Source of the DNA: an uncultured Gammaproteobacteria bacterium
GTDB taxonomy: Bacteria > Patescibacteriota > Patescibacteriia > Veblenbacterales > UBA10138
Direction: 5' to 3'
Assembly (NCBI GenBank): GCA_964453605.1
Contig: CAYVOI010000001.1
Location: 376,029 to 418,094, forward strand
DNA: 42,066 nt
The notes under the pieces were generated by a model. The model saw only the letters and a list, made by a program, of their open reading frames with translations. It searched no databases and was not told where the DNA came from. The position numbers and the translations under genes were made by a program. This document shows positions 1,723 to 5,419 of the stretch, piece after piece; position 1 is the first letter of the stretch, and every line of letters begins with the position of its first letter.

Positions 1723-1777
1723 CGCGAGGCGAGTACGTTGGCCTTGTGCGTTGAGCCAAGGCTAACGTAAAACCTGT

Positions 1778-1819
1778 ACCCCTCATGTTCAAATGCTATG
1801 AACATGAGGGGTGTTTTTA
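1778..1819 (+). terminator. Intrinsic terminator
   Basis: Perfect 14-bp stem ACCCCTCATGTTCA/TGAACATGAGGGGT followed by GTTTTT. Confidence 0.85.
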
Positions 1820-1837: not shown

Positions 1838-1866
1838 TTGCCAAGTTCCTAGGTTTAGCCTATACT
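1838..1866 (+). promoter_or_regulatory. sigma70 promoter of the rpsB-tsf-pyrH operon
   Basis: TTGCCA (1838-1843), 17-nt spacer, TATACT (1861-1866). Confidence 0.8.
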
Positions 1867-1871
1867 ACCTG

Positions 1872-1999
1872 CACTTAATCTCCATACCATTTGCTGGCTG
1901 TACCCTTGTCCGCCCTGGGCGGATTCTCCAGCCTTTCAAAGCAGGCGGTAGCAGCTCTCCCCGTAATACTTTGGGGAGGGGTAAAGGAAGCAGTTTTTT
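1872..1999 (+). ncRNA. Structured 5' leader, probable rpsB (S2) regulatory leader
   Basis: Lies between the promoter and the original rpsB start site. Nested stems: TACCCTT/AGGGGTA, TCCGCC/GGCGGA, CTCCCC/GGGGAG. Confidence 0.5.
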
Positions 2000-2000
2000 T

Positions 2001-2319
2001 ATGCCCGGTAGTGAAACTTTGACAGGTTATGTTCCATTACGTATACGTACTTCGAAGCTCGGTCATAAGGAGTGCTTTACCACGGGCAGACTACCGATTT
2101 CAAGAAACGGCTTAGGGAACATAACCAAGGTCTAGTGATTTCGACCAAGCCATACCGTCCCTGGGAGCTCATATACTACGAAGCTTGTTTGTCTGAGAGC
2201 GACGCTAAGCGTCGAGAGCACTACTTCAAGACCAATCAAGGCAGGCGGCTCCTCAAACGTCGTATCAAAGATTACCTATTCACTATTAACTCTTAAGTCA
2301 AAGTTCTACTACCGGGTAT
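2001..2319. mobile_element. Miniature inverted-repeat element carrying a GIY-YIG nuclease gene, inserted at the rpsB start
   Basis: ATGCCCGGTAGTGAAACTTTGAC (2001-2023) pairs with GTCAAAGTTCTACTACCGGGTAT (2297-2319): 20 Watson-Crick pairs, 2 G-T pairs, 1 mismatch. TATGCCC occurs at both 2000-2006 and 2317-2323. Confidence 0.75.
2029..2296 (+). pseudogene. Small standalone GIY-YIG endonuclease (UPF0213/YhbQ-like), frameshifted
   Basis: MFHYVYVLRS from the ATG at 2029 is in a different frame from LYHGQTTDFKKRLREHNQG...TKPYRPWELIYYEAC...DAKRREHYFK (2072-2296). The frame changes within about 2056-2075. Confidence 0.8.
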
Positions 2320-3064
2320 GCCCCAACTCCCCACACTACTCGAGATGCTGAAGGCCGGCGTGCACTTTGGCCACCAGAAGTCCAAGTGGCACCCCAAGAT
2401 GCGCGACTACATTTACACCGTGCGCCATGGCATCCACATTTTAGACCTCGAGAAAACCTCGGCCGCTCTAGAGCGCGCGCTCAATTTTCTCAGGGACGTT
2501 GCTGCCGGTGGTGGCACGGTGCTGTTCGTAAGCCTCAAGGAGCAGGCTGATAAGCCAATTCGCGAGGCGGCCGAGCGTACCAACCAGCCCTACATTGTAG
2601 GCCGCTGGCTCGGCGGTGTGTTCACCAACTTTAGTGTTATTGGCAAGCTCTTGAGGCGCCTTGACTCGTTAGAAGCCGAACAGAAGGGCGGCATCTGGGA
2701 GCAGAAGTACTCTAAGAAGGAGCAGCTTGAGCTGCAGCGTGATTTTGACAAGCTCCAGGAAACGGTTGGTGGTATTCGCAACCTGACTAAGCTGCCGCAG
2801 GCCATCTTCCTCGTTGGTACACGCGAGGCTAAGAACGCCATTCGCGAGGCCAAGAAGGTCGGCGTGCCAGTGGCAGCGTTGGTTGATACCAACACGAACC
2901 CTGAGCAAGTTACCTACCCCATTCCTGCGAACGACGACGCCATGCACGCTATAGAGATGATGGTAAAGTTGGCCGCTGAGGCGGTTATGGAAGGCCAGAA
3001 AATTGCCCTCGAGGGAACAAAGGCCGAGGCCGAAGGCCCTAAGGCGCCAGTGCCAGCTGCATAA
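2318..3064 (+). CDS. rpsB: 30S ribosomal protein S2
   Basis: LLEMLKAGVHFGHQKSKWHPKM, RWLGGVFTNF, LVDTNTNP, PIPANDDA. Confidence 0.98.
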   Translation: MPQLPTLLEMLKAGVHFGHQKSKWHPKMRDYIYTVRHGIHILDLEKTSAALERALNFLRDVAAGGGTVLFVSLKEQADKPIREAAERTNQPYIVGRWLGGVFTNFSVIGKLLRRLDSLEAEQKGGIWEQKYSKKEQLELQRDFDKLQETVGGIRNLTKLPQAIFLVGTREAKNAIREAKKVGVPVAALVDTNTNPEQVTYPIPANDDAMHAIEMMVKLAAEAVMEGQKIALEGTKAEAEGPKAPVPAA

Positions 3065-4495: not shown

Positions 4496-5419
4496 TTATT
4501 TTAGTAGTGCCATTTTCCCCACCTCCACATAGGCACGAACGTCGCTGGTGGCGCTAGCCTGCAGGCGGTAGATGTACATACCGCTAGGCACGTTAGCCGC
4601 TGCCTGGAAGCTAACAGCGTAGTACCCGCCTGGCTGCGTGCCATCGACCAGGGTGGCGACCTTTTGGCCGAGCATGTTGTACACCGCCAGCCTGACGTAG
4701 CTTTCGGTTGGTAGCTCGTACTGGATGGTCGTCGAGGGGTTGAACGGGTTGGGGTAGTTCTGCAGCAGCCGGTACGTCGCTGGAACAGAGCCGGGGCCCG
4801 TTGCCACGGCCGTGGGATTGCCGTACAGCCAGCGTATCCCATCTTCATCGTCCTGTGACAGGTACCGTTTGCTGGTGGAGCCAGCGGTTTGCCCGTAGTA
4901 CATGGTGTTGCCGCTACAGTGGTCGTCGTACTCATCCATTAGTTTCAGCCAGTGACCCAGCTCATGGGTGATGGTGGACTGAATGTCCCACTGAGATACA
5001 CTGGGACTAATGCTCCACTCTATGCCATCAACCTGGTTGAAGCACGTTTGTGCTTCAACCATGCCATCGACAGGGTTCCAAAACGTAGTCGTGCGGGCCA
5101 GCACCGTCACATCGGTTAAGAGTTGCCAACCGACGATGTTGAACCCCTGTTCCGTACCGGTATAGTTCTCAGCTCGTTCACTTGCATACGAGAACCAGAA
5201 CGACGAGCCCGGAACGTACGTTAGCGTTTGTGCTGCATCCAGAGTCCCATTCACGAACTCTGCGTGGCTGGCGGAATTGGTGCCCATGTTATCGTTTATG
5301 TAAAACGTCACATGGGCACTGTGCCAGAAGCACCCCTGTGGACTGCTGTAGCAGGGCTGAGCTTTGGTGGTTGAAATAAACCACGAACTCAGTGCGATAA
5401 GGAGAAGTAACCGTTTCAT
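4496..5419 (-). CDS. Secreted matrixin/metzincin-like zinc metalloprotease with a C-terminal T9SS type A sorting domain
   Basis: Signal peptide MKRLLLLIAL...; zinc motif HELGHWLKLMD with Met-turn NTMY; C-terminal LLQNYPNPFNPSTTIQYELP...VYNMLGQKVATLV...SGMYIYRLQA...KMALLK; SD AAGGAGGT. Confidence 0.85.
   Translation of the reverse strand: MKRLLLLIALSSWFISTTKAQPCYSSPQGCFWHSAHVTFYINDNMGTNSASHAEFVNGTLDAAQTLTYVPGSSFWFSYASERAENYTGTEQGFNIVGWQLLTDVTVLARTTTFWNPVDGMVEAQTCFNQVDGIEWSISPSVSQWDIQSTITHELGHWLKLMDEYDDHCSGNTMYYGQTAGSTSKRYLSQDDEDGIRWLYGNPTAVATGPGSVPATYRLLQNYPNPFNPSTTIQYELPTESYVRLAVYNMLGQKVATLVDGTQPGGYYAVSFQAAANVPSGMYIYRLQASATSDVRAYVEVGKMALLK

Follow-up and report, generated by a model that had tools for sequence, protein, structure and literature searches.

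The closest published counterpart of the locus analyzed here is the Ssn system, exemplified by SsnA of Neisseria meningitidis, a GIY-YIG nuclease associated with the NTS/SRM hairpin repeats (Chenal et al. 2025, PMC11893778), whose NTS-ssnA-NTS layout is described by the authors as resembling an insertion sequence. Our locus lies in a 42,066-nucleotide (nt) stretch of DNA, hereafter the window, from a patescibacterial genome (G000; 933,652 bases, 99.8% complete), in which a 313-bp insert (positions 2004-2316) brings a small GIY-YIG nuclease gene, bracketed by inverted repeats, to the start codon of rpsB, the gene of ribosomal protein S2. This insert is probably a decayed copy of a family of minimal insertion-sequence-like elements of Patescibacteria that are moved by their own nuclease. 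It shares with Ssn, as presented in the sections consulted of that article, a single-domain GIY-YIG protein of about 90-100 residues and a gene flanked by cognate inverted-repeat DNA. In Ssn a separate local hairpin is described on each side, whereas the two arms of the element pair with each other across the gene, and the same sections of PMC11893778 give no target duplication, start-codon position or mobility. The published degenerate SRM motif did not occur in the window, and its 4 occurrences in the genome compared with 6-10 in five mononucleotide shuffles of contig C1.

Other GIY-YIG proteins displayed more distant resemblances. The nearest proteins of solved structure were the UPF0213 proteins BH0048 (1zg2, E 3e-7) and EF2693 (1ywl, E 1e-6), followed by SLX1 (E 8.5e-5); all have the GIY-YIG core, and UPF0213 is also small and single-domain. 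Unlike the element, UPF0213 and SLX1 are cellular proteins without reported flanking repeats or mobility, and SLX1, which cuts branched and stem-loop DNA, needs a partner and possesses extra domains. The Seg proteins of phage T4 are free-standing GIY-YIG homing endonucleases that spread by homologous repair at one site. As generally known, they are encoded, like the element, by selfish genes that lie among host genes and are found repeatedly at one and the same site in relatives, but they are about twice as long, harbor DNA-binding domains, and lack inverted repeats, duplication and gene-less derivatives. In rRNA genes of the candidate phyla radiation (CPR), GIY-YIG genes were also reported within insertions without a match to group I or group II introns (Tsurumaki et al. 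2024, PMC11270868). These insertions, compared by description only, share the bacterial group and the protein family of the element but lie inside rRNA genes, and the sections of PMC11270868 consulted do not mention inverted repeats, duplications or start codons. A GIY-YIG protein was listed among transferred genes in a subsurface study, in the part of that source that was consulted (PMC12455944).

At rpsB, the repeat search returned inverted arms of 23 nt (2001-2023 and 2297-2319), 87% complementary with 20 of 23 positions paired, and separated by 273 nt. Both this search and direct reading bore out the arm pair described in the initial annotation of the sequence, together with the heptamer TATGCCC that it had noted on both sides (2000-2006 and 2317-2323). 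Two of the three non-Watson-Crick positions were G-T as stated there (G2003/T2317 and G2013/T2307), the third being A-C (A2014/C2306). Within the 7-bp repeat, the target duplication is TATG only, as CCC corresponds to the first three bases of the element on one side and to the second rpsB codon on the other. The element thus delimited adds a net 317 bp, counting one TATG. The core of 20 nt of the arms occurred twice in the window, compared with 0.01 occurrences expected from 100 shuffles. The nuclease stop codon (TAA, 2294-2296) is immediately followed by the right arm, and the ATG at 2318-2320 opens an intact Ribosomal_S2 protein of 248 amino acids (aa; Pfam PF00318, E 1.2e-80). The terminator-like hairpin and the promoter listed in Table 1, the latter being the sole such site in 1650-2400, place the element inside the rpsB transcript, downstream of the promoter.

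Table 1. Coordinates of the features surrounding the insertion at rpsB (positions of the window)
Feature	Position	Strand	Description
Terminator-like hairpin of the upstream gene	1776..1814	+	Stem of 16 pairs, then a T run; the rpsB intergenic region starts here
Sigma-70-like promoter of the rpsB-tsf operon	1838..1866	+	TTGCCA, 17 nt, TATACT; consensus match only, at 10/12 positions
Conserved structured rpsB leader (host, intact)	1874..2000	+	Ends in GTAAAGGAAG (1981-1990) and a T run (1994-2000)
Left target duplication TATG	2000..2003	+	Holds the former rpsB start (ATG 2001-2003), which the host leader still precedes
Left terminal inverted repeat	2004..2023	+	20/20 identical to the left arm of genomic copy 2
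GIY-YIG nuclease pseudogene	2029..2296	+	GIY motif from ATG 2029; remainder in the +1 frame from about 2067
Right terminal inverted repeat	2297..2316	+	20/20 identical to the right arm of genomic copy 2
Right target duplication TATG	2317..2320	+	Holds the rpsB start codon in use (ATG 2318-2320)
rpsB (ribosomal protein S2), intact host gene	2318..3064	+	N-terminus MPQLPTLLEMLKAGV agrees with relatives

The rpsB start was compared among 20 relatives of the family level, in 19 of which the S2 gene was found, with 18 loci including the rpsB start. This site was empty in 15 of the 18, where ATG directly follows the conserved leader, at the end of which GTAAAGGAAG is succeeded by three or four bases and then by a T run. 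Removal of the insert had been predicted to restore the rpsB start beside its leader, and this is the sequence seen in the 15 relatives. The comparison was extended to sequencing runs through assembled Logan contigs, where a 305-base contig from groundwater run X4 of another study joined position 1999 to position 2317, skipping exactly 317 bases. This contig was about 90% identical to the window (7 differences in 62 positions of the leader and 15 in 172 of rpsB). A second contig of the same run harbored both arms with just 37 letters between them. The empty sites in relatives and the skipping contig agree with the insertion that the initial annotation had envisaged at this place. Inserts of other subfamilies were found at the same base in three genomes, gene-less in G012 (about 143 bp) and G014 (about 140 bp), and 402 bp long without recognisable gene in G015, while the start was empty in G001, a congener of G014. 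Four genomes (G000, G012, G014 and G015) thus have the rpsB start occupied, by no fewer than three subfamilies. These observations bear on the reading of the insert as a regulatory hairpin or cassette of the rpsB leader belonging to the host and not mobile. Its location inside the rpsB 5' untranslated region, adjoining the conserved leader, fits such a reading, which is nevertheless scarcely credible given the absence of the insert from 15 of 18 relatives and from the contig of about 90% identity, its presence at unrelated genes of the same genome, and the nuclease pseudogene that it carries.

The insert of G015 (L053:2201-2602, minus strand) displayed the inverted ends of the family and TATG on both sides, without a GIY-YIG gene. 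A frame of 125 residues opening from the old ATG had no Pfam match, and the 402 bp of DNA had no Rfam match; the insert may represent another cargo or decayed sequence.

The source genome held at least five copies of the element, three with a nuclease gene and two gene-less, each on a start codon. When the 324-base query was compared with G000, it retrieved itself, a copy of 90% identity over positions 2-321 and a 35-base match corresponding to one arm of a third copy. The full-length copy of 90% identity (copy 2) is bordered by the stop codon of an RNase HII-like gene on one side and by the ATG opening a methyltransferase gene on the other. The third copy is gene-less, 159 bp long and located at the ATGA stop/start overlap of two glycosyltransferase-like genes. 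A census of inverted repeats in the genome added a gene-less copy of 145 bp at C1:262487, and a 308-bp copy with diverged arms and an open nuclease frame was found between adk and map. Both ends of all five copies bear an ATG, the right-hand one opening a long open reading frame (ORF) in every case. Six arms were found in three pairs in G000, and paired or single arms in G018, G011, G005, G015 and G031, so that the arms do recur elsewhere with and without cargo, a search that the initial annotation had proposed as a check. The glycosyltransferase junction displayed a series of decay, from an intact gene of 95 aa in G018 to the gene-less copy of G000 and a lone left arm in G005.

Several candidates were set aside. 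Single arm-like matches with 2 mismatches in G019 and G020 were inside coding sequence and were put down to chance. An inverted-repeat pair at L037:106-275 was dropped owing to the lowest score and unrelated ends, as was a 114-bp unit of G000 (C1:247740-247853) with similar termini (CCCCGTA...TACGGGG), which had no flanking ATG or duplication.

The census of G000 and of the loci of relatives yielded a family set of 18 elements sharing one plan of arms, in which an outer helix beginning with CCCNGTA is followed by a conserved irregularity and then by an inner helix of 8-10 pairs. In the subfamily of the window a GA/AG doublet forms this irregularity, and the other subfamilies have a bulge or shift of one base instead. 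Elements differed in the sequence of the inner helix, but a change in one arm was always accompanied by a change in the other. Across the 18 pairs of arms, 329 positions of the first 20 columns were Watson-Crick, 6 were G-T, 5 were A-C and 20 were gaps. Such co-variation fits a paired stem as well as a single protein reading both ends, and does not decide between the two. The initial annotation had taken the G-T pairs as consistent with selection for single-strand pairing, but they give no indication of such selection on one strand, since the conserved asymmetric doublet reads as a wobble plus a mismatch whichever strand is considered and is no pointer to RNA. Selection specific to one strand of the arms was likewise rejected, as both polarities of the doublet relative to the gene were found in the wide set described below, in roughly half of the cases each.

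In the family set, ATG was present on both sides of 17 of the 18 elements. The element was followed by an ORF of at least 132 aa in 16 of 18; in one case a tandem second element came next, and in one the ORF ran off the locus. Tandem elements of different subfamilies were observed head to tail around a common middle TATG (L039:1480-1934 in G011, L028 in G002, and L094). The common TATG of these tandems indicates that a start codon, once rebuilt, serves in turn as a target for further insertion.

Beyond the family, 129 of 130 candidates were relatives of the nuclease at E 1e-10 or better, and every named one came from a group within the Patescibacteria. In the wide set, drawn from GTDB genomes, 592 of 601 matched stretches among the matches listed encoded a relative of the nuclease, and counts of elements rest on the best 80 loci of these 592. 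A strict anchoring rule was applied (GTAG/CTAC-type anchors with at least 10/14 inner and at least 3/4 outer pairs). Homologues of the nuclease without inverted repeats would have spoken against a mobile unit, but inverted repeats of the same kind flanked the homologues in 12 of 30 family loci, and the same inverted ends were found in 51 of the 80 wide-set loci, 49 of which had both flanks within the locus. For the scoring of duplications, the boundary was set at a constant 4 nt outside the anchor, and the adjacent 4 nt further out served as control. A perfect 4-bp direct repeat was found in 36 of the 49 loci and a 3/4 match in 3, compared with 2 and 1, respectively, in the control. The perfect duplications encompassed ten different 4-mers (TATG, 19; ATGA, 6; TGNN, 8; AATG, TACG and TAAA, 1 each), and 34 of the 36 hold an ATG or complete one with the last base of the element. 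None of the 36 was in reverse orientation, elements being always co-oriented with the host gene. As the 4-bp duplication is usually TATG or ATGA, the element lands on the start codon and leaves a complete ATG before the host gene. The proposal of the initial annotation, a small mobile element inserting without disrupting an essential gene, is supported by the multiple copies, the empty sites and the duplications, and none of the findings that it had named as contrary to it was made.

Like insertion sequences and their gene-less miniatures, the MITEs (miniature inverted-repeat transposable elements), the elements have terminal inverted repeats, a short duplication of fixed length, unrelated, non-homologous sites, empty sites, gene-less derivatives and a transcribed intergenic position. 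The Correia/NEMIS elements of Neisseria are an example of MITE derivatives of bacterial insertion sequences. The elements differ from insertion sequences in that they hold no transposase of the DDE, HUH, serine or tyrosine classes, a GIY-YIG nuclease of 88-95 residues being their sole gene, and in their size of about 305-320 bp, far smaller than usual, their rebuilt start-codon target and their strict co-orientation. The element of the window thus resembles an insertion sequence, but its enzyme belongs to a class for which transposition is not known. Such a family is apparently undescribed, full-text searches of the open literature having listed no article on bacterial GIY-YIG elements with inverted ends and start-codon duplications, with subscription journals and supplements outside the search.

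Since GIY-YIG enzymes are the classical homing endonucleases, a free-standing homing gene was considered, which would cut the empty allele and be copied in by homologous repair across the conserved flanks. The occupancy of the same sites across genera (the rpsB start in G000, G012, G014 and G015, and the glycosyltransferase junction in G000, G018 and G005) and the conservation of the rpsB leader and 5' end, sufficient for recombination, are in line with it. A homing gene is expected at one homologous site without repeats or duplications, whereas one subfamily with identical arms occupied three non-homologous sites in one genome, and the rpsB site was filled by at least three subfamilies. Moreover, homing requires neither inverted repeats, 4-bp duplications (36/49 vs 2/49), tandems repeating TATG nor gene-less derivatives, and the protein is a bare catalytic domain of 88-95 residues without a DNA-binding domain for a long target. 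Homing thus appeared quite improbable.

The nuclease was recognized by its Pfam match (PF01541) at 2072-2296, with 47 bits against a cut-off of 22.6 (E 3.2e-12), covering positions 15-74 of the 78 of the profile. The GIY motif falls within the first 14 positions of the profile, for which the coding sequence starts at 2029 in a different frame; the other 74 codons are in the +1 frame. The initial annotation was right in placing a nuclease gene tightly between the arms, but this gene is not intact, as one extra base is present at 2066 relative to genomic copy 2. Logan contigs from two runs of one study displayed no difference from the window over 1700-2129, the extra base included; they represent an independent assembly, the reads of which are possibly the same as those behind the window. 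The sole contig without base 2066 was a paralogue. Pfam returned nothing for the N-terminal fragment of 28 residues, and NCBIfam gave only sub-threshold matches. Because of the frameshift at 2066, the copy of the window is dead as an autonomous element, while its ends and duplication remain intact. Programmed frameshifting was dropped as an explanation, since the extra base was missing from copy 2 and from all homologues, and no recognisable slippery motif was found.

The nuclease consists of a single domain in the family. Eight residues (Y4, Y6, Y17, G19, R27, H31, N32 and E51) were invariant in 32 homologues, and all eight are encoded in the copy of the window, split over two frames. We take these columns (Tyr, Tyr-x-Gly, Arg, His/Asn and Glu) to be those of the GIY-YIG active site. 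Copies 1 (at rpsB) and 2 differed by 21 synonymous and 10 non-synonymous changes, with a proportion of synonymous differences (pS) of 0.35 and a ratio of non-synonymous to synonymous change (dN/dS) of 0.11, both 20-nt arms being identical. Copy 2 has ACG in place of the start codon of the nuclease. The dN/dS ratio together with the invariant arms indicates that protein and ends were constrained for most of the separate history of the two copies, and that both defects arose late.

The GIY-YIG nuclease is likely the mobility enzyme of the element. It would recognize the two ends, either as duplex sites or as a stem in single-stranded DNA, the latter being a would-be analogue of the Ssn hairpins and of the substrates of SLX1. 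It would then cut the boundary between element and flank, as well as the target, with a stagger of 4 nt, and repair and ligation by the host would join the ends. Alternatively, the inverted-repeat unit could be mobile with the GIY-YIG protein as a passenger or host-interaction factor, another enzyme or host recombination moving the unit; in one such model, an Ssn-like single-strand nuclease would act on the hairpin of its own arms, e.g., by restricting incoming or replicating single-stranded DNA. The absence of known strand-transfer chemistry in GIY-YIG enzymes argues for a passenger, as do gene-less copies with arms lacking a matching nuclease gene in the same genome (C1:262487 in G000 and the rpsE copy of G011). 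In the sections consulted of PMC11893778, the Ssn GIY-YIG proteins are site-specific single-strand nucleases with genes flanked by cognate hairpin repeats and modulate transformation, and an insertion-sequence-like origin is raised merely as a hypothesis. The nuclease gene, however, filled the whole space between the ends in 51 of the 80 loci and evolved under purifying selection together with invariant arms. The motif related to Ssn was absent, and the arms bracket the gene rather than forming one local hairpin on each side. No other enzyme was provided by the four classical transposase families, as searches of the 99.8%-complete G000 for the Y1_Tnp, rve, DDE_Tnp_1 and TnpB domains gave no match, while each of these was detected in 6-9 of the 14 genomes used as controls. 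A passenger nuclease is therefore unlikely, although less so than homing.

Several points weigh against mobility driven by the nuclease. All sequences compared derive from metagenome-assembled genomes. The search for transposases in G000 was made for the four families named above and did not include serine or tyrosine recombinases, IS110-type enzymes and others. We know of no GIY-YIG enzyme that carries out transposition; the family is hydrolytic, which leaves the joining step without a known catalyst. Both full-length copies of the subfamily in G000 look inactive (frameshift and ACG start, respectively), and nothing in these copies, which are 10% apart, indicates recent movement within the genome. 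In the wide set, 29 of the 80 loci failed the strict anchoring rule, and 13 of the 49 had no perfect 4-bp duplication at the fixed boundary, some of these failures being repeats of 3 or 5 bp by eye (TTG, ATG, TATGA). A few duplications (TACG, TAAA) were without ATG. Finally, the occupancy of start codons may result from selection in a gene-dense genome instead of targeting.

The position of the element between a leader and its gene raises the question of how the host gene is translated. In the wide set, the nuclease frame has its own in-frame ATG just inside the left arm in 47 of 51 elements, the gene being intact in the family at large; in 9 of 51 the frame can be read without interruption starting at the old host ATG, the arm then encoding residues such as PGSET. 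The nuclease stop codon was 14-24 nt upstream of the host ATG in 33 of 41 cases, overlapped it as ATGA in 3 and was further away in 5; the ORF following the right-hand ATG reached at least 60 aa in 39 of 41. The arms of the copy at rpsB paired in minimum-energy and centroid folds, both as RNA (z -2.75) and as single-stranded DNA (z -3.1). From these distances and folds, we tentatively propose that the host gene could be translated by re-initiation after the frame of the element, by an arm stem joining the leader to the ATG, or by both. The host leader and old ATG would drive translation into the element, and ribosomes would re-initiate at the rebuilt ATG, the nuclease stop being usually 14-24 nt upstream or overlapping. 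Alternatively or additionally, the arms, predicted to pair by folding, would bring the leader next to the ATG. In the window, the frame entered at the old ATG closes at 2135 and that of ATG 2029 at 2115, both far from 2318, so that rpsB must initiate without coupling in this copy; with coupling broken, it would start alone or helped by the stem.

Pairing of the arms in the transcript would also be central to an intervening sequence acting at the RNA level, in which the insert would be processed out of the rpsB mRNA (e.g., by RNase III) as in rRNA, and in which RNA-level neutrality instead of DNA targeting would explain the positions of inserts. Besides the predicted fold closed by the arms, the GIY-YIG genes in non-intron insertions of CPR rRNA genes, as described in the sections consulted of PMC11270868, could be cited for it. 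Yet no intron or other Rfam family was matched at gathering scores in the window, nor at E up to 1 in 1820-2360, and cutting the stem of the mRNA without ligation would part the leader from rpsB. The 4-bp duplications and the copies at new sites would be left unexplained, so that such processing, very improbable as the origin of the insert, would be at most an added property of a DNA element.

Returning to an element moved by its own nuclease, we lean, if only narrowly, towards a bolder reading, in which these units of about 305-320 bp would rank as the smallest known autonomous DNA transposons and as the first to use a GIY-YIG transposase. In this reading, a bare structure-specific nuclease of 90 residues would recognize the stem or the paired ends and cut with a 4-nt stagger at (T)ATG(A), with joining left to the host, and the element, designed so as to do no harm and to express itself, would borrow the ribosome-binding signals of the host gene for its own frame and return ribosomes to the rebuilt ATG about 20 nt after its stop codon. 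Landing on and rebuilding a start codon would explain the occupancy of the essential genes rpsB, rpsE and map in genomes of less than 1 Mb. If the nuclease moves the element, GIY-YIG would join DDE, HUH, serine, tyrosine and Cas1 as a class of transposase, and the lower size limit of an autonomous mobile element would fall to about 300 bp. The start-codon habit would allow a parasite to persist in genomes with almost no spare DNA, as it neither breaks a gene nor needs a promoter of its own. For the annotation of ultra-small bacteria, such elements would explain hundreds of genes labelled 'GIY-YIG nuclease family' or 'hypothetical', as well as odd long leaders before ribosomal and other core genes. 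A small enzyme with defined recognition of stems or ends and a staggered cut could be a useful tool, as argued for the related Ssn nucleases. In the window itself, the practical consequence is that rpsB is intact and that the nuclease gene preceding it is a pseudogene within the relic of a mobile element.

Four other small GIY-YIG genes were observed in G000 without bracketing inverted repeats (C1:156657-156884, 341415-341672, 487989-488249 and 756588-756824). At least three of them (156657, 341415 and 487989) adjoin tRNA genes, with a duplicated piece of the tRNA 5' end upstream of the nuclease gene. These tRNA-adjacent genes are a second arrangement of the same protein family.

The rpsB 5' leader (1874-2000) appeared as a conserved structured RNA of the bacterial family, with three helices and a last hairpin in which GUAAAGGAA is paired to the U run directly preceding the AUG. 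In an alignment of 13 rpsB leaders (those of the window and of L051, L052, L054, L056-L058 and L060-L065), pairing was maintained through changes on both sides at 22 of the 37 pairs predicted. The leader had no match to an Rfam family, and may be an S2 autoregulatory leader specific to these bacteria. A segment of it, TACTTTGGGGAG (1967-1978), is complementary at 10 of 12 positions to rpsB codons 4-7, CTCCCCACACTA (2327-2338), and the two pair in the predicted RNA fold, outside the stem of the arms. This complementarity may be due to chance, as relatives have other codons there.

Further along the window, a predicted metalloprotease of 307 residues is encoded on the minus strand (4496-5419), with weak matches to Peptidase_M43/M10. 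At its C-terminus is a Por_Secre_tail sorting domain (E 2.7e-6; score of 28 bits, cut-off 27), which is associated with the type IX secretion of Bacteroidota and hence odd in an ultra-small bacterium.

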